A stretch of DNA of 64,000 nucleotides from Rickettsiales bacterium (GTDB taxonomy: Bacteria; Pseudomonadota; Alphaproteobacteria; Rickettsiales; BLZN01). The position numbers and the translations under genes are program-made. Shown piece by piece: positions 18,036 to 32,308 of the stretch. Numbering within the stretch: the stretch's first letter is position 1; each line of letters opens with the position of its first letter. Below the pieces are notes generated by a model. It worked only from the letters and a program-made list of their open reading frames with translations. It was not told the DNA's origin and did no database searches. Location of the stretch: NCBI GenBank assembly GCA_014132315.1, contig BLZN01000104.1, positions 35,623 to 99,622 on the forward strand, written 5' to 3'.

Positions 18036-18590
18036 TTAGCTAGCCAGTATCCTTAGAGCTCTATCTATAGCTCCAAATAAATCTGGATCATTGTTTATCC
18101 CTCCAGATTCATGCTTGACCTGAGTCACGCGCGCTTTTTCATTCGCAGGATTAACAGCCAAACTTATTTCAAAGACATAGCCTGTGGCAACATGGGTAAT
18201 GCCAGTTTCCGGGTCTATATAGTACCTAAGGGGAGCCCAGCCAATAGACACGCCGTTAAATACACCCTCTTTCATCATCTCATAAACCTCACGTGCACGC
18301 TGCACATCAAGGCAAAGCTGCGCCTCAAAATACAATCCTTTTTTATCTTCTTTGGCATCTAGTATTTTGCCTATCGGCTCCCGGGCTATGTGACTCCAAA
18401 GTAGAGTTATGCGGTCAGGGTCCAGATACTCAAAAGCACCTGGATACGTGATATCATTATGCAAATCCAAGTAATTAAAAACACTTGCATACCCAACAAT
18501 CTTGCCAGTTTCCTCAACTGACTTTATCCCCAAGATAGGCTCGGTTTTAAAAGTTTGGAAATTATGAGAAGCTCGTGCAACTGCCGCCAT
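18036..18590 (-). CDS. HK97-family prohead serine protease (S78)
   Basis: 184 aa. GYASVFN..D.HNDITYPGAF, LLWSH....PIG (His) and GVSIGW (Ser) match the S78 signature. Confidence 0.85.
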   Translation of the reverse strand: MAAVARASHNFQTFKTEPILGIKSVEETGKIVGYASVFNYLDLHNDITYPGAFEYLDPDRITLLWSHIAREPIGKILDAKEDKKGLYFEAQLCLDVQRAREVYEMMKEGVFNGVSIGWAPLRYYIDPETGITHVATGYVFEISLAVNPANEKARVTQVKHESGGINNDPDLFGAIDRALRILAS

Positions 18591-18677: not shown

Positions 18678-19205
18678 CTATTCGTTGTAGTATAAGGCGG
18701 TAACTGGATCTGCATACATTAGAGGAACAGCACTTATACTAACCCCCATGATCCACAGTGTACTATAAACTTTTATTCCTTCCTCTACACTGCGCTCTTG
18801 GTCTATTATGCTCTTAGCCTCCATATAGTAAACTGAAGAGTTCATAGACACTCCAAACCTCAGCATCGCATAAATCTCTCTAGCCTTCTGCACCTTCAAG
18901 ATAAGCTTAGCTTTATAATACAGACCTTTTTCGGGATCTTCATAGAGACTCAGTACTTTGCCTATCGGTTCTGCCTGATTAATATTCCACACAACCGTGT
19001 GGTCAACGAAATCTATATTCTTAAAAGCACCAGGCAATGCTCTACCACCGGCACCGGGAGTGCCAAAGGGCAGAGAATTAAGGGGACCATCATAACCGGC
19101 TGCATAGCCATAAATTATGCCATCACCTTCCACTCCACTGGACTCAAACCCCGCGACGTTATCATTTCTCACTATTTCAAGAGAATTAGAACTGATTCTT
19201 CTCAT
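18678..19205 (-). CDS. prohead-protease paralog lacking the catalytic His (probable pseudo-protease)
   Basis: 175 aa, alignable to the neighbouring protease (GYAAGY...LPGAF...VVWNINQAEPIGKVL..EDPEKGLYYKAKL..VQKAREIY). The SH of LLWSH is replaced by NI, and the N-terminal region carries a Gly-rich insertion. Confidence 0.7.
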   Translation of the reverse strand: MRRISSNSLEIVRNDNVAGFESSGVEGDGIIYGYAAGYDGPLNSLPFGTPGAGGRALPGAFKNIDFVDHTVVWNINQAEPIGKVLSLYEDPEKGLYYKAKLILKVQKAREIYAMLRFGVSMNSSVYYMEAKSIIDQERSVEEGIKVYSTLWIMGVSISAVPLMYADPVTALYYNE

Positions 19206-20739: not shown

Positions 20740-20961
20740 CTACACGTCATAATTGCTATAATGATCATATTCATCGTAAGTAGTATACACCACTGGCTGA
20801 TATTCCACATAATAGGGCGTATTATAAGGATATCCGTATTCTACAAATACAACTTCCTGTTGATAATGTTGGGAAACATAGTAATAACCCAGTCCAAAGG
20901 CGGCTCCAACCGCGAGGCCAAATAATATTTCTAAAGCAAGCATACCAACAACAAAACACAT
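20740..20961 (-). CDS. 73-aa membrane-anchored Tyr-rich acidic mini-protein
   Basis: N-terminal TM-like segment (FVVGMLALEILFGLAVGAAFGLG), then a tail with 15 Tyr. SD AAGGA and a TATAAT-containing promoter-like motif lie upstream. Confidence 0.55.
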   Translation of the reverse strand: MCFVVGMLALEILFGLAVGAAFGLGYYYVSQHYQQEVVFVEYGYPYNTPYYVEYQPVVYTTYDEYDHYSNYDV

Positions 20962-20979
20962 AAACTTTCCTTATAAATA

Positions 20980-20992
20980 AATATTATATCAA
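20980..20992 (-). promoter_or_regulatory. TTGATATAATATT promoter-like motif for the 73-aa ORF
   Basis: The minus strand reads GTATAATATCTTGATATAATATTTATTTATAAGGAAAGTTTATG. About 48 nt of this leader are duplicated at 21119-21163. Confidence 0.45.
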
Positions 20993-21034
20993 GATATTAT
21001 ACATAATAGATCGTATCATAAACATATACGTATT

Positions 21035-21118
21035 CTACTTGAGGGGGGGCGTGTATGTAAGTTCGTGAACTACTAGGCCGGCAGCGACCGTATATAAAAA
21101 AGGTATCAAAAAAGGCAT
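21035..21118 (-). pseudogene. truncated or frameshifted tandem paralog of the 73-aa Tyr-rich gene (27 codons as read)
   Basis: Same leader, a perfect AGGAGG SD, and a hydrophobic N-terminus (MPFLIPFLYTVAAGLVV). The frame terminates just after a C7 tract. One extra C would give ...PPPQVEYVYVYDTIYYV* (40 aa, Tyr-rich like its neighbour). Confidence 0.45.
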
Positions 21119-21137
21119 AAATTCCTCCTATAAATAA

Positions 21138-21150
21138 AATATTATATTAA
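21138..21150 (-). promoter_or_regulatory. TTAATATAATATT promoter-like motif for the 27-codon ORF
   Basis: The minus strand reads GTATAATATCTTAATATAATATTTTATTTATAGGAGGAATTTATG. Confidence 0.45.
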
Positions 21151-21220
21151 GATATTATACAATAATGTCCAAAAACTAAAGTTTGTTAAATTGTTATTTA
21201 TGACAAAAAGTACATATTAA

Positions 21221-25426: not shown

Positions 25427-26551
25427 ATGGCACCACCAAATCATCCACCTAAGACCAATGAGGTAAAAGGGCAACAAAGCAAAGTCGGAGGAGATTCTGA
25501 ACCCGGAGAGCAGCCTGTCAAGCTGCCGTTTAGTGCAGAAGAATTGCAAAAAGCCAAGAAAACTCTAAAACACGTAGAAATCATAAAGCAGAAGGAGGAA
25601 AGGCCGAATCAAGATACCGAGCGAGCTGAAGGGTTTAGGCCTAAAATAGCACCAAAGCCAAGATACCTTAAACGCAATTCTCCTCCAGAGAAGCGCGGAG
25701 AACAGGTTCAGGAAAGTGACCCTTTTAATATTTTAGACATCAAGCCCACAGTTTTCAGATCAGTAGCATACTTAAGCCCAATCGTAGATTTGGAAGGAGC
25801 GCAGGCGAAATACACAAATAAAAGAAAAGAAAAGAACGACAGTGCCAAGTTGCTTAAAAAGAAAAAAGAAGAGCTGCGCGGTACAAGATGGTTTAAAATA
25901 TTCAAGCGAATAAAGTTAAGCATAGAAATAAGGCAAAGAAAGAAAGAATATGAAGCAGCAAAAAACGCAAGTTCCTCAGCAGCTCGTGAACTCCAATGTG
26001 CCCTAGGAAATACAGCAGATGCGCAAGATTTTATTCCAATAAAATTGGATGAATTAGAAAAATTCTTAGAACAAGACAATGAAATCGCACAAGAAATCTC
26101 GAATTTTTGTGCGGAGCGCGATCTCAAGATAGAAACATTTGTACCAAATGAGCGTAGTATTCAAACAGCACATCAAAATATTAAATGCTTAGATATAAAA
26201 GCCATTTTATATCACGTATTATTAGAAGACACTGCTGCCACTACTGACAGCAAGAGGATGAGATGCATTAGAATAGTTGAAAAATGCATTGAGGAAATCG
26301 AAAAATGTCCAACATTTGATCGGGAAGAACACGAGCCTATATATTTTCAGAAAGAGGAAATAAAAAGACTAAGAGGAAATGTACTTAATCTTCAGGAGCT
26401 TAAAAGCCTCGTCGGAGATTTCAAACAATCTCTCGAAGAGAAAATGGAAAGAGAATTAAAGGAGGAGCACAAAAAAGACAAGGTGCAAGGCCAAGAAGAC
26501 AGCAAAACGCCACCAAAAACTGAAAGCAGAAGCGCATCATTAGGCCGCTAG
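25427..26551 (+). CDS. orphan Lys/Glu-rich protein with a Pro-rich N-terminus (candidate secreted effector)
   Basis: 374 aa with no recognisable catalytic motif. The N-terminus is Pro-rich and contains a WH2-like LPFSAEELQKAKKTLKHV stretch; the rest is predicted helical and charged. Confidence 0.55.
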   Translation: MAPPNHPPKTNEVKGQQSKVGGDSEPGEQPVKLPFSAEELQKAKKTLKHVEIIKQKEERPNQDTERAEGFRPKIAPKPRYLKRNSPPEKRGEQVQESDPFNILDIKPTVFRSVAYLSPIVDLEGAQAKYTNKRKEKNDSAKLLKKKKEELRGTRWFKIFKRIKLSIEIRQRKKEYEAAKNASSSAARELQCALGNTADAQDFIPIKLDELEKFLEQDNEIAQEISNFCAERDLKIETFVPNERSIQTAHQNIKCLDIKAILYHVLLEDTAATTDSKRMRCIRIVEKCIEEIEKCPTFDREEHEPIYFQKEEIKRLRGNVLNLQELKSLVGDFKQSLEEKMERELKEEHKKDKVQGQEDSKTPPKTESRSASLGR

Positions 26552-26601: not shown

Positions 26602-27132
26602 ATGCTAATAAAACATCACATAGCTTTGGTGGGTTTTATGGCTAGCGGAAAATCCACTATAGGCAAGATGCTAGCGGAAAAAATCAATGCTGATTTCTGT
26701 GACCTAGATGAGATAATCGCATCTGAGGAGAAAAAGAGTATTGAGAGAATTTTTGCTGTCAAGGGGGAGCACTATTTCCGCCTTGTTGAGTCAAAAGCAC
26801 TCAAAAACCTGTTAAGCAAAAAACCTGCAGTCATGGCGTTAGGAGGAGGTGCATTCATAGCGCCTCAGGCAAGGCACTTACTATTCGGTCGAGCCACAAC
26901 AATCTGGATCCAAGCAAATTTTAATATATTATATAAGAGATTAGATAGTACCAATAGACCCCTAGTGCCACGCAAAGGGAGATATAGCGCCCTGGGCAAG
27001 CTAAACAACAAAAGACAAAGCATATATAGAAAAGCAGATCTGCATGTCGCATCTCATCAGCTGAACGCTGAAGAAGTGGCAGATAAAGTTATCAAAGAGC
27101 TAAAAACCAGTCGATTTGTCCTTTCTGATTAA
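26602..27132 (+). CDS. aroK: shikimate kinase
   Basis: P-loop GFMASGKSTIGK, D..IE motif and GGG(A) motif ALGGGAF. Confidence 0.88.
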   Translation: MLIKHHIALVGFMASGKSTIGKMLAEKINADFCDLDEIIASEEKKSIERIFAVKGEHYFRLVESKALKNLLSKKPAVMALGGGAFIAPQARHLLFGRATTIWIQANFNILYKRLDSTNRPLVPRKGRYSALGKLNNKRQSIYRKADLHVASHQLNAEEVADKVIKELKTSRFVLSD

Positions 27133-27685: not shown

Positions 27686-28726
27686 ATGCAAAAAATAATA
27701 TGGTGGGGCGCAGTTTCTGCTTTGCTTGCTGCATTTATATTCATAGTCAAGCCAATCCTCACTCCTTTTGTGCTGTCATTTGCTTTTGCATATTTCCTAA
27801 ATCCGGCGGTCATGGCGCTAGAAAAACTGAAAATACGCAGAAGCATCGCGACATTATTCATCCTAGTCAGCTTTTTAGCGGTAATTATTCTTGCCATCTC
27901 TGCCCTGATACCCATCCTATTTGCAGAAGGCACAAAATTACTAAAATCTTTTAAAAATATAGATATAATCAACAATGAGATACTGGCAAAACTTTTAAGT
28001 GCAGTCGATAAGCTTCAGCTGAAAGATCTCAGGAGCATGGAAAAAAGCATGGGCAGTAGTTCTGAGCTGATAATAAGCGCTGCCAAAAATGGCTTGGCAA
28101 TTATCTGGCATTCCGGCGTTACATTCGTCGGCATCATTTCCTTTATCCTGATTACGCCGGTAGTAACATTTTATGTATTAAGAGACTGGAAAAAAATCAC
28201 CGCCAGTATACTCGGTCTAATTCCTAGAAAACAAATAGGGATAATCACTGAGCATCTCAGTAAAATCAACCACATACTTGCTGCTTATATCAGGGGACAG
28301 GTGAGCATTTGTTTGATATTAGGCGGTTTTTATGCCACTGCACTTACCATAGCGGGGCTGGAGCTGGCAATACTGACTGGCTCCATTATAGGCATATTAG
28401 CCTTCATACCTTATATCGGCGGTATAGCTGGCTTCCTAATGAGCCTTATTCTAGCACTGAAGCAATTCGACTCATGGATCCATATCGGCATTATCATATT
28501 CATCTTCACTAGCGGACAAATCTTTGAGAGCCTCTTTTTAACGCCCAAGCTGATAGGGAAAAAAGTAGACCTACACCCGGTTTGGGTGATATTCAGCATG
28601 CTTGTCGGGGGCGCAGTATATGGATTTCTTGGCGTATTAATCGCAGTGCCGACCGCAGCCACAATTGGGGTCATAATGCGCTCTATAATCCAGAAATATC
28701 GTCAAAGCCCAATCTACAGCGCCTAA
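27686..28726 (+). CDS. AI-2E family (PerM/YdiK-like) transporter
   Basis: 346 aa with about 8 TM segments. Family-typical C-terminal region (...GFYATALTIAGLELAILTG...IPYIG...LTPKLIGKKVDLHPV...). Confidence 0.8.
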   Translation: MQKIIWWGAVSALLAAFIFIVKPILTPFVLSFAFAYFLNPAVMALEKLKIRRSIATLFILVSFLAVIILAISALIPILFAEGTKLLKSFKNIDIINNEILAKLLSAVDKLQLKDLRSMEKSMGSSSELIISAAKNGLAIIWHSGVTFVGIISFILITPVVTFYVLRDWKKITASILGLIPRKQIGIITEHLSKINHILAAYIRGQVSICLILGGFYATALTIAGLELAILTGSIIGILAFIPYIGGIAGFLMSLILALKQFDSWIHIGIIIFIFTSGQIFESLFLTPKLIGKKVDLHPVWVIFSMLVGGAVYGFLGVLIAVPTAATIGVIMRSIIQKYRQSPIYSA

Positions 28727-28850
28727 AGGAAAATTAAGCCGGATCTGGGCAATATAAGTTTAATACTTTTTTATAGAAAATTTATAAATAACTTGTAACT
28801 TTAACAAGTTAATAATACAATAAATATTAGATTAACAATAATGAGAAAAA

Positions 28851-29747
28851 ATGAAAAATCAAGAAAAGCTTAACAAAGAGATGAAAAATCCGCCATCTTC
28901 AGAATTACAGGAACCCTCCTCTTATGAATTAGGACCAGAAGCTTTGAAAGACCTCGAAGAGGCTTCTGAGGATTGCCCTAATTGGAGGAGTAAAAAAGAT
29001 CCAGAAAGCAAGTTCGAAAAGGAATACAAATATTACAAGGCATACAAGGAGAGCGTTGAAGGTCTAAAGATGCACAATGACATACTTCTTTTTTTTGGAG
29101 AACGTCGCATCAAGACAATTAAATCTCCAGAAGCATTAGAAGGTGCTATTCAAGATGCAATTAACAATGCAGAGGCAAATAACATCAAAATACTTTTTGA
29201 GTGCAAAAATCCTTCTGGAACACTAACATGGGAAGCTGCAAAAAAGAAGGATGCAAAAGGGAATATATTTTCAAAATATGAAAATAGTATTAGAATATTT
29301 ACCAATGATGTCGGATATATAAAGGAAATTAAACTTAATGGAGTGTTAGAAGATTGCAAAAAAGATGAAGATCCAAAGCGACAGTTCTTATGTCAGCTCC
29401 TTATAAGGGAAATATTGCAAAACCTTGAATCAAAGGATGAATATAAGACTTTGCAGAAACTAATGAATTTGAAGGAGCAGTATAACTCGGAGAATGGAGC
29501 ACCAGTACATCTTGAGAGAGAAATAGTCTTATCCGGTCCATCACAAGCACTTTATGCAGGAAGCTTATCTAATGAACACAAAGGTATGTCCTGCAAAGGG
29601 CTCAAGGAAAAGTATATCACTCTTATTGATGATGATTTAGCAGAATCACTAGACGCGAAATATCAGGAAGAGAAGAGCAAAGAAGCACAAGGGGCCGAGA
29701 AGGTCTTCGATATTGATAAAGAGAAAGATGGATTTGTAATTGTTTAG
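28851..29747 (+). CDS. orphan charged protein (298 aa) carried on an insertion
   Basis: Long ORF preceded by a purine-rich stretch (aatgagaaaaa) rather than a clear SD. No recognisable domain. Lies between two copies of the transporter gene's 3' end. Confidence 0.5.
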   Translation: MKNQEKLNKEMKNPPSSELQEPSSYELGPEALKDLEEASEDCPNWRSKKDPESKFEKEYKYYKAYKESVEGLKMHNDILLFFGERRIKTIKSPEALEGAIQDAINNAEANNIKILFECKNPSGTLTWEAAKKKDAKGNIFSKYENSIRIFTNDVGYIKEIKLNGVLEDCKKDEDPKRQFLCQLLIREILQNLESKDEYKTLQKLMNLKEQYNSENGAPVHLEREIVLSGPSQALYAGSLSNEHKGMSCKGLKEKYITLIDDDLAESLDAKYQEEKSKEAQGAEKVFDIDKEKDGFVIV

Positions 29748-29763
29748 CAAGCTATGGGTAGGT

Positions 29764-29779
29764 AGGGGTTAACACCCCT
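29764..29779 (+). terminator. candidate stem-loop terminator after the 298-aa ORF
   Basis: aggggt-taac-acccct, 17 nt after the stop. The downstream T-tract is poor (cttgcctctg). Confidence 0.3.
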
Positions 29780-29833
29780 CTTGCCTCTGCGCAAAACAGC
29801 AAGTTGCCCGGATATCGCTCATAATAAGGAGAT

Positions 29834-29878
29834 ATAATCCAGAAATATCGTCAAGGCCCTATCCGCCTGATCTCTAGT
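29834..29878 (+). repeat. relic second copy of the 3' end of the AI-2E transporter gene
   Basis: ataatccagaaatatcgtcaa is identical to 28685-28705, and the surrounding sequence is similar. It would encode IIQKYRQGPIRLISSA*, versus IIQKYRQSPIYSA* in the live gene. Confidence 0.7.
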
Positions 29879-29974
29879 GCCTAAGAACAAGTCATGAATT
29901 ATATCTGAATAATTTAAGTTAGTAACTTGACTATATAATGGTATAATTGTTTATGTGATATATATAAAACTTCA

Positions 29975-30810
29975 ATGATGAAATCACCAAAAGACATGAG
30001 CCTTGCTGAAATGAAGCAATATCTTACCAGCAAATATATAACAGCAGGAGAAAGGGAAAAATATTTACGGGAAGTAATTTCTCTTAATCTATCAATGTAT
30101 TTAGATCCAATATACCCCCTCATAAATGATTACGCACCTAGAGGCCATATCTCATCATAGGCTAGCAAATTTGTGCGAGAAGATCTCATAGGCATGTTTT
30201 ACAAGCAATGTAGACAGAAATTTTATCCTCTGCCCAAAGCCAGAACTGAAAAAAGTATGGCAGGAAAAGTTGGGGAGGAAGGCGAATACTTGTTCATTCA
30301 CTTTGATGATGAAAGAATACGCATAAGCATTAAAGAAGAAGCCTTAAGGCAAATCCAGCGGTTCAGCTGCCAAGTTTGGAAAACAATAATTCCTTGTATG
30401 CTTTTGCAAGACATCCTCAACATCATCACAGCTCATGAAGAATATAAAAATATCACAAATTCCATAAAGAATTGTTGAGCTCTCTAAAAAGAATGAATGA
30501 TGTTGATAGTGACGACAAGCAAGAGATTATAGATTATATAGTAAAGGGCCGTGTAATGATAAATGAAGATATTAAAATGGCATCTTGTAACCATGCACTC
30601 AAACGTTACTAGCTAGGTGATGAAGTCTATCAATATTTGCATGATATAAGGCTTCAAGCGTCCAAGATAAGGCATAACACTCTGCATCACCAACCTTCTA
30701 GTAAGTTGGAGGAGACAAGCGCCAATGATCAAGCTGAAAAATTAGAGGCAGATAATAGCTCTCCCTCTGATCCTTCTCTTCCTGATTTACAAAAGCCAAG
30801 ATTACGTTAA
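29975..30810 (+). pseudogene. fragmented orphan gene (~278 codons) broken by in-frame stops and a frameshift
   Basis: ORFs 29975..30160 and 30173..30478 are in the same frame, separated by a single TAG. A third piece (30493..30612) continues after another TAG, in one frame, to 30810. Confidence 0.5.
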
Positions 30811-30898
30811 TTATAATTAATACATATCTCGCTTAATATCATAGCTATATTAAGCGAGATCTTAATATTTAAACAGCTATGGAACTACTCATAATAAA

Positions 30899-32308
30899 TT
30901 AATCAATGTTATTATACTCATCAGTATAATTTCTAAATACAGTAGTGTTGTAGTCAAAAAATAACTTCGCGCTGCCAACGGGGCCGTTTCTCTGCTTGGC
31001 AACGATAATTTCAGACTGGTTGCGTATTTGTTCCATCCTAGCCTGCCATCTGTCATGCTGTTCAGTACCTTCAGGAGGCTGCTTTCTTCTTTCGTAATAT
31101 TCCTCCCGATAAATGAACATCACCACATCCGCATCCTGCTCAATACTGCCTGACTCACGCAAATCAGCCAGCTGGGGCCTTTTATCGTCCCTCAGCTCAA
31201 CTGCCCTGGAAAGCTGGGACAGCGCTACCACCGGAATGTTCATCTCTTTGGCAATAGCTTTCAAGCCTTGAGTTATCTCTGAGACCTCATTCACTCTATT
31301 ATCTGCACTAGACCTAGCCACACCACGGACTAACTGCAGATAGTCCACAAACAATATTGCCATATCATGCTGCCTGCATAGCTTTCTCGCCCTAGTGCGC
31401 AGACTGGAAATAGATATAGCCGGCGTGTCATCAACGTAAAAATCAAGCTTATCCAATACCCGTCTAGCTTTCACTACCTGTCCAAACTCGTCTTCATGCA
31501 GCGTACCCATTCTGAGCTTATTAGAGTTGAAACCTGACTCCATCGCCAGCATTCTGGTAGCAATTTGCTCAGCAGACATCTCAAGAGAAAAAACACCAAC
31601 TGACTTACCAGAATCAAGGTGCTTGCAGGCATTAACTGCTAGATTGATGGCAAATGCCGATTTGCCCATAGCCGGACGGCCTGCGACAATCAGCAAATCA
31701 GACTTCTGAAAACCGCCAAGCAACCTATTCAGATCAAAAAATCCAGTATCTATGCCAATCAGGTTACCTTTGTTGCTATAAGCCGTCTCAATGCTCTTGA
31801 GTGAAGCTGCAGTAAGATCAGCCAGGGAGGTAAAGGAGCGCTCACTGAAGCTTGAGGTGGCAAGATTAAAAATTTTTTGTTCTGCTGCCTCTATCCGGTC
31901 ATTTATCGTGGACTCTTCTTCTCCTTTGCCGGCATTATTGTATATATCCTCACCAATCCTCATCAGCTCACGCCTCAGAGCTAGCTCATATATAAGGCGC
32001 GCTAACTGTTCCACATTAACAATGGTGGTGGCAGCTTCAGCCATTGCAGCGAGATAATCGTCGATATCCTGCGGATCTTTTTCGTCTTTAAGAGCAGACT
32101 TTAGAAGCATAGGGGTCGTGGCGAGACCACATTCATTATGCTGCGCTATTTTAGCAAAAATACGCTGATGTATGGGGTCATAAAAATGCTTGAAGTTTAG
32201 CTTGTCCTCTATCTTCTCATAAAAATCATTGTTCATCATCAAAGCGCCTAAAAGCGCTTGCTCTGCTTCAACATTATGGGGATACTGCATTGCTTCTATT
32301 AACAACAA
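30899..32308 (-). CDS. dnaB: replicative DNA helicase
   Basis: PHNVEAEQALLGALM N-terminus, Walker A GRPAMGKSAFA, and LVDYLQL / SQLSR motifs. Confidence 0.95.
   Translation of the reverse strand: MLLIEAMQYPHNVEAEQALLGALMMNNDFYEKIEDKLNFKHFYDPIHQRIFAKIAQHNECGLATTPMLLKSALKDEKDPQDIDDYLAAMAEAATTIVNVEQLARLIYELALRRELMRIGEDIYNNAGKGEEESTINDRIEAAEQKIFNLATSSFSERSFTSLADLTAASLKSIETAYSNKGNLIGIDTGFFDLNRLLGGFQKSDLLIVAGRPAMGKSAFAINLAVNACKHLDSGKSVGVFSLEMSAEQIATRMLAMESGFNSNKLRMGTLHEDEFGQVVKARRVLDKLDFYVDDTPAISISSLRTRARKLCRQHDMAILFVDYLQLVRGVARSSADNRVNEVSEITQGLKAIAKEMNIPVVALSQLSRAVELRDDKRPQLADLRESGSIEQDADVVMFIYREEYYERRKQPPEGTEQHDRWQARMEQIRNQSEIIVAKQRNGPVGSAKLFFDYNTTVFRNYTDEYNNID

Follow-up and report, generated by a model that had tools for sequence, protein, structure and literature searches.

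The DNA analyzed here, a stretch of 64,000 nucleotides (64 kb; hereafter the window) on contig BLZN01000104.1, belongs to Rickettsiales bacterium SESOKO1, a single-cell genome of 1.08 Mb and 41% GC from the coral Acropora tenuis (PMC7686419). The subject is the locus behind the intact gene perM, which codes for an AI-2E family transporter. perM is followed on the same strand by an open reading frame of 298 codons (ORF298, identical to RLOatenuis_3950 of “Rickettsiales bacterium”), a short second copy of the perM 3′ end (the relic) and a decayed gene (geneX), while the convergent helicase gene dnaB forms the right-hand flank (Table 1). Between the two perM ends lie only ORF298 and a stem-loop, as the initial annotation had stated.

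Table 1. Features of the perM–dnaB locus (positions in the window; L147 is a contig of species B, described in the text).
Feature	Position	Strand	Basis or remark
AI-2E family transporter (perM), intact, 346 aa	27686..28726	+	Pfam PF01594, E 8e-52
Repeat copy 1, live 3′ end of perM (IIQKYRQSPIYSA and stop)	28684..28726	+	tail of the species B type
Intergenic region with promoter-like TTGTAA-17-TACAAT upstream of ORF298	28727..28850	+	promoter scan; orthologous to species B
ORF298, lineage-restricted, fast-evolving	28851..29747	+	database scans, dN/dS, species B homolog
Stem-loop after ORF298, possible terminator, no T tract	29756..29786	+	fold; 91-nt stretch z −1.15, weak
Ancestral ORF298–dnaB spacer, first part	29778..29815	+	local alignment to L147
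Block of approx. 1.05 kb in SESOKO1 and sister strain, not in species B	29816..30864	+	comparison with species B
Repeat copy 2, non-coding relic of the perM 3′ end (IIQKYRQGPIRLISSA and stop)	29833..29884	+	sequence comparison with copy 1
geneX, decayed, approx. 280 codons	29975..30810	+	TAG at 30158, frameshift near 30470, TAG at 30610 (three-frame translation)
Perfect 14-bp hairpin, terminator-like, between geneX and convergent dnaB	30826..30860	.	−16.5 kcal/mol, z −5.0
Ancestral spacer, second part, joined to the first part in species B	30865..30898	+	33/42 matches to L147 11423–11382
dnaB replicative helicase, right-hand conserved flank	30899..32308	−	gene call and relatives

The duplicated transporter end reported in the initial annotation was confirmed using a repeat finder: positions 28684–28714 and 29833–29863 are identical at 29 of 31 nucleotides and share an exact core of 22 nt (TATAATCCAGAAATATCGTCAA), for which 21 nt had been given. 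When the 21-nt core was searched with up to three mismatches tolerated, it occurred twice in the window and not at all in 100 shuffled sequences. The window is very repeat-poor altogether, and in a self-BLAST with 16-nt words the perM-tail repeat was the sole repeat found, ranking second best among 16 when the word size was lowered to 11 nt. Since it occurs just twice, with no third copy in the window, it is not part of a dispersed repeat family.

The live perM gene terminates in ATAATCCAGAAATATCGTCAAAGCCCAATCTACAGCGCCTAA, giving the peptide tail IIQKYRQSPIYSA (…QSPIYSA before the stop). The second copy begins at 29833/29834 with ATAATCCAGAAATATCGTCAAGGCCCTATCCGCCTGATCTCTAGTGCCTAA and reads IIQKYRQGPIRLISSA (…QGPIRLISSA before the stop); the two peptide tails had originally been interchanged. 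The relic spans 52 nt and closes with a TAA stop at 29882–29884. It had been taken to end at 29878, but reaches 29884 because of a 9-nt in-frame insertion. It is non-coding, with two in-frame stops just upstream and no start codon. No RNA structure was detected in it (z 0.19), and an Rfam scan gave no match apart from a spurious miRNA match far below the gathering score.

Two related lineages were used for comparison. The sister strain (L022), represented by a 145-kb ENA metagenome contig, is approx. 98% identical to the window in the flanks at the DNA level (98% in perM), with a dS of 0.01–0.13. The second lineage, species B (L024–L026 and L147–L150), is represented by two independent ENA assemblies (L147/L148) plus JGI contigs; its perM is 85% identical, evenly along the gene, its DnaB is 90% identical, and dS amounts to 0.64–0.74. 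Beyond the three lineages, the next perM relatives are at most 44% identical, and a scan of a genome collection with perM returned only relatives of at most 39% identity, without synteny information. In L022, the layout is the same as in the window, i.e., perM, the intergenic region, an ORF (312 aa), the relic, the same broken ORFs and dnaB. As this is an independent metagenome contig, the arrangement is not an artifact of single-cell assembly.

In species B, the distance from the perM stop to the dnaB stop is approx. 1.1 kb and is filled by one 310-codon frame and a 75-nt spacer; both the relic and geneX are absent from the two ENA assemblies and the JGI contigs. The remaining DNA falls into four pieces, all collinear with the window. 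The end of perM, with the adjoining intergenic region (28658–28844), aligns to L147 12558–12383 (blastn, E 1e-22; 57–70% identity in the intergenic region), the 3′ part of ORF298 (29609–29684) aligns with an E-value of 1e-6, and positions 29778–29809 match the L147 spacer at 26 of 31 positions plus a 3-nt gap, a score reached in 0 of 2000 shuffles. The fourth piece, the dnaB-proximal half of the spacer (30865–30907), follows immediately upon the third in species B. What the window and the sister strain have in addition is the block 29816–30864, and ATAT stands on either flank of it (29812–29815 and 30865–30868). An empty site of the kind that an insertion would predict has thus been found, but it is empty of the relic and geneX and not of ORF298.

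Since species B, otherwise collinear, has an ortholog of ORF298 but lacks the block, ORF298 is by this comparison the ancestral occupant of the slot between perM and dnaB rather than inserted cargo. It had been regarded as an orphan cargo gene of unknown origin, a view with which the 310-codon gene in the same slot of species B is incompatible, being homologous to ORF298 (21% identity over 241 aa, E 1e-9). Database searches with the 298-aa protein recovered no relatives outside the clade. Among 5.8 billion clusters, two relatives were present, namely ORF298 itself and the 55% identical protein of the sister strain; when 1.84 billion representatives were searched with a profile of ORF298 and P0002, ORF298 alone was returned, and no family was matched in Pfam, PHROGs or NCBIfam. 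The AlphaFold model of the protein is poor (mean pLDDT 49). The GC content of ORF298 is 36%, compared to 42% in perM. However, low GC is common to ORF298, to geneX and to ORF374, the gene in the other variable slot of the window, and is, therefore, a property of slot genes, so that the composition check gave no sign of recent import. The species B ortholog has a single in-frame TGA at codon 141 (L147 approx. 11974, L148 approx. 6026), identical in two assemblies, and could be a recent pseudogene or be read through.

Using L022 for polarization, the ancestral state of the relic was reconstructed. This ancestral relic matches the live perM tail at 39 of 42 positions, with the 9-nt in-frame insertion in addition; the relic of the window acquired two further changes after the two strains had separated. 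Two of the three ancestral substitutions are synonymous (CCA to CCT, AGC to AGT), one changes an amino acid, and the stop is kept. With mostly silent substitutions, an in-frame indel and a preserved stop, the pattern suggests that the relic formerly was the end of a working perM allele. The perM tail of species B (…SPIYSF before the stop) is of the type of the live tail and not of the relic, and it matches the live tail at 37 of 42 positions (five differences) despite a dS of 0.7. These numbers bear on the possibility that relic and geneX were already present in the common ancestor with species B, which then lost both by a clean deletion. With a single outgroup, insertion and deletion are formally indistinguishable. 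Nevertheless, a non-coding relic should have drifted neutrally over a dS of approx. 0.7, and yet it matches the live tail better than the constrained tail of species B does; moreover, the deletion must have restored a continuous spacer exactly. As a 93%-identical non-coding sequence could not have survived such divergence, a late insertion is likelier than an ancient duplication, and we consider the loss in species B highly improbable.

The block itself is composed of 17 bases, the 52-nt relic, 90 nt of AT-rich DNA with promoter-like hexamers (29885–29974), geneX and the 14-bp hairpin. The hairpin is missing from the spacer of species B; its motif was also tried as a dispersed repeat and rejected, as its counts in the 64 kb are at chance level. 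geneX matched no family in Pfam, PHROGs or NCBIfam, and exact-sequence look-ups with a geneX fragment returned the SESOKO1 record alone. The disruptions of its frame are common to L022, and one additional 1-nt indel differs between the strains; as judged from this pattern, geneX had lost its open frame before the two strains separated and is still gathering indels. A weak hint connects it with the ORF298 family, namely the motif F-x-C-Q…IL…EEYK (blastp E 0.003, HMM rank 4 of 1001, hhalign P 0.006).

This hint, together with the similar length of the two units (1149 and approx. 1070 nt) and the occurrence of CTCATAATAA near the right end of both, is what a tandem duplication within the genome would have to offer, in which unequal crossing-over doubled the unit of perM tail, intergenic region, ORF298 and spacer, and the second ORF diverged and decayed. 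The extremely fast evolution of ORF298 could be adduced for it as well. However, unit 1 (28684–29832) and unit 2 (29833–30905) share no DNA similarity past 31 nt, and their intergenic regions align no better than shuffled sequences (491 of 2000), although a similarity of approx. 93%, as in the relic, would be expected. Furthermore, the synonymous divergence of ORF298 is at background level (see below), so fast protein evolution cannot have erased the similarity of the DNA. Duplication within the genome is, thus, more improbable still than a loss in species B.

The ends of the block were inspected for traces of a mobile element. A 22-nt identical core resembles the core of an att site, the block ends form an imperfect inverted match by eye (GATATCGCTCATAAT and ATTAAGCGAGATC, 11 of 15), and the ATAT on both sides could be read as a target duplication. 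The repeat could accordingly be attL/attR or a target duplication that was brought along or generated by an element such as an integrase islet, or an insertion sequence (IS) or MITE-like element with terminal repeats. Against this, neither an integrase nor a transposase domain was detected among the genes called within 10 kb on each side, in ORF298 or in the pieces of geneX, and the block contains no other known domain; here the initial annotation, which had noted no integrase or IS, was right. No tRNA was found near the locus, plasmid and phage DNA collections contained no match to it, and neither the block nor the hairpin motif nor the repeat has a further copy in the 64 kb. A metagenome scan with the 17-mer ATARTCCAGAAATATCG gave at least 120 unrelated matches, the pattern being too short, and none of those listed aligned to the locus. 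The two repeat copies do not enclose the additional DNA. A mobile element is, therefore, the least probable of the explanations considered; rather than representing a novel element of this kind, the tail relic is a recombination scar of the ordinary sort, left in a small endosymbiont genome. At the left joint, the 17 nt 29816–29832 (CGCTCATAATAAGGAGA, to be divided into CGC, TCATAAT and AAGGAGA) contain a perfect Shine-Dalgarno-like AAGGAG besides the heptamer TCATAAT, which is also found in perM 10 nt upstream of the repeat and next to the dnaB stop.

Taking these observations together, we hold with moderate confidence that the block 29816–30864 most likely entered the locus once the lineage had separated from species B, through a single illegitimate recombination event, and that the gene it brought decayed subsequently. 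The partner would have been a second, diverged perM–gene–dnaB locus, most likely on DNA of a related strain, and the joining, facilitated by microhomology or homology, would have taken place inside the formerly continuous 75-nt spacer between ORF298 and dnaB. The left join would lie approx. 50 nt before the stop of the foreign perM, such that a second slot unit was stacked behind the resident one, whereas the other end would have been resolved in conserved dnaB-proximal sequence. geneX, which may be the donor counterpart of ORF298, would have decayed after the join. The join would date from after the species B split and before the separation of the two sister strains; the layout common to both strains places the event before their split (dS 0.01–0.13). 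Just what is seen, a recognizable tail followed by unalignable DNA, would be left by a donor whose distance roughly equals or somewhat exceeds that of species B, because the perM tail is constrained (5 differences in 42 positions) while slot genes and intergenic regions diverge very fast; between ORF374 and its slot counterpart in species B, for instance, no similarity remains. The fragment of the perM tail (52 nt) heads the stacked block, as would be the case for stacking by homology-facilitated illegitimate recombination (HFIR) or by 3′-end displacement. At the joints, ATAT is present on both sides, and 17 nt at the left joint have no assigned match. Of the integration footprint at the 3′ end of a gene that had been proposed initially, a recombination event which duplicated the perM 3′ end with neither integrase nor IS can be retained; ORF298 as its incoming cargo cannot.

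The same arrangement could have arisen as a mirror image, by displacement of the 3′ end. Here, the incoming DNA would have comprised the 3′ part of perM, the intergenic region, ORF298 and the spacer, entering through homologous recombination inside perM and illegitimate recombination at the far end; perM would thereby have received a new terminus, and the old tail of the relic type would have been shifted downstream together with geneX, which decayed. The topology is as predicted (an intact gene, a new unit, a fragment of the old tail, a decayed old unit), the relic with its in-frame indel and preserved stop resembles a former coding end, and analogous arrays have been described for Rhs, contact-dependent inhibition (CDI) and type VI secretion system (T6SS) loci (PMC5361080). 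However, the live-type tail, the intergenic region, the ORF298 ortholog and both halves of the spacer are contiguous in species B, which makes the ORF298 unit ancestral in the clade, so that an earlier replacement by geneX would be required. In addition, the illegitimate joint within the spacer of the donor must by chance coincide exactly with the point at which homology between the recipient and species B sets in again at ATAT, and no shift in divergence along perM marks a crossover. Being less parsimonious, this history is rather unlikely.

Several points weigh against a join with the locus of a related strain. The homology of geneX to the ORF298 family remains a hint, and the 17 nt at 29816–29832 match neither perM (TCATAAT excepted) nor the spacer. 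A donor haplotype, in which a perM ending in …CLISSA is directly followed by an intact geneX, was not found in the databases, which is weak evidence as these contain three lineages of the clade. The polarity was derived from one outgroup, and the sequences seen today would be the same if species B had undergone a deletion or if the mirror-image history applied. Finally, uptake of DNA from another strain by an intracellular bacterium is an assumption.

For ORF298, comparison with the sister strain resulted in a dN of 0.29 and a dS of 0.10, i.e., dN/dS = 2.9 (Fisher p 1.5e-5). The amino acid is changed in 43% of its codons, synonymous change is found in 3.6% of the amino-acid-conserved codons, the same as in the neighboring genes, and the frame is open in both strains. 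Given this ratio, the background level of synonymous change and the open frames, the codon comparisons show ORF298 to be a real gene under strong positive selection. A similar picture emerges for ORF374 (25427–26551), with a dN/dS of 2.2 (p 3.9e-4), 36% of codons changed and synonymous change at background. The neighboring genes have dN/dS values of 0.09–0.26, the gene for shikimate kinase excepted. This gene (26602–27132) has 12 non-synonymous changes and 1 synonymous change between the strains (dN/dS approx. 3.5, based on small numbers), and it shares 33 nt at its 3′ end with the convergent Smr gene. The orphan genes which flank the block of shikimate kinase, Smr and perM are, thus, among the fastest-evolving proteins measurable, with approx. 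40% of the residues changed against approx. 4% of the synonymous sites, and we consider these positively selected slot genes more worth following than the repeat itself.

In species B, the genes in both slots (L147 11464–12396 and 15013–15876, both on the minus strand) code for an N-terminal F-box above the Pfam cut-offs, and the positional ortholog of ORF298 reaches 22.7 bits at a cut-off of 20.5. No F-box was matched by Pfam in ORF298 and P0002, and ORF374 has no similarity to the slot-1 gene of species B. The domain points to a role of the slot proteins of species B as effectors directed at the eukaryotic host cell. Bacterial effectors with an F-box include AnkB/LegU1 of Legionella and VirF of Agrobacterium. 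The slot genes of species B have the F-box in common with these, and ORF298 and ORF374 evolve like host-interaction proteins; in contrast to the known effectors, ORF298 is without a detectable F-box. ORF298 and ORF374 are, in this sense, prime candidate effectors in the interaction between coral and Rickettsiales.

The scar dates and delimits one gene gain in a lineage which is usually thought only to lose genes, and hints at a capture of DNA from a related strain without the machinery of mobile elements. In a broader and rather improbable interpretation, the tail relic would be the first visible trace of cassette-stacking in an obligate intracellular coral symbiont, in which diverged host-interaction genes of related strains are captured in a fixed slot behind perM by homology-anchored illegitimate recombination, comparable to the displacement arrays of Rhs, CDI and T6SS loci, and in which the slot genes evolve under extreme positive selection (dN/dS 2–3). 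If true, this would mean ongoing DNA exchange among the strains of one coral host.

Elsewhere in the window, the best repeat is a direct repeat of 59 nt (85% identical, 20953–21007 and 21110–21166, 157 nt apart) among small ORFs by a phage-portal-like gene. A weak similarity of 112 nt (69%) connects 18272–18380 with 18860–18971; in species B, the counterparts of both segments encode prohead proteases (two Peptidase_S78 genes), with portal and capsid genes alongside. This is a head module like that of a gene transfer agent (GTA) or prophage.

Among known processes, the locus can be compared to HFIR (de Vries and Wackernagel, 2002; Prudhomme et al., 2002; summarized in PMC3240628 and PMC5361080). 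The shared traits are foreign or diverged DNA placed beside a conserved anchor, one illegitimate joint that would lie at a few bases of microhomology, the dispensability of an integrase and a partial duplicate of the neighboring gene. However, the process has been shown in naturally transformable or conjugating free-living bacteria, whereas here it would be read from a scar in an intracellular member of the Rickettsiales.

The arrays formed by C-terminal or 3′-end displacement at Rhs, CDI and T6SS effector-immunity loci (Jackson, 2009; Kirchberger, 2017, PMC5361080) likewise have a fixed slot behind a conserved gene, a short retained piece in front of a module, decayed modules and variable slot genes. 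They differ from the perM locus, in which the conserved gene is a membrane transporter of the housekeeping type instead of the toxin gene, one unit only is stacked, and toxin or immunity domains were not detected using Pfam, PHROGs and NCBIfam. Further, the comparison of lineages here favors greater age for the unit adjoining the intact gene.

Integrative islands at the 3′ ends of genes or tRNAs resemble the locus in the direct repeat with an identical core. In contrast to such islands, however, the locus has no integrase, the bracketed gene is ancestral, and species B is missing the second repeat together with the DNA that follows it on the right. Finally, the reductive genomes of Rickettsiales carry split, decaying remnants of genes, as in Rickettsia. 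A short non-coding fragment with an adjacent pseudogene, drifting neutrally in a small endosymbiont genome, agrees well with these remnants, with the difference that the relic duplicates a gene which is still intact, rather than being what remains of a lost one.

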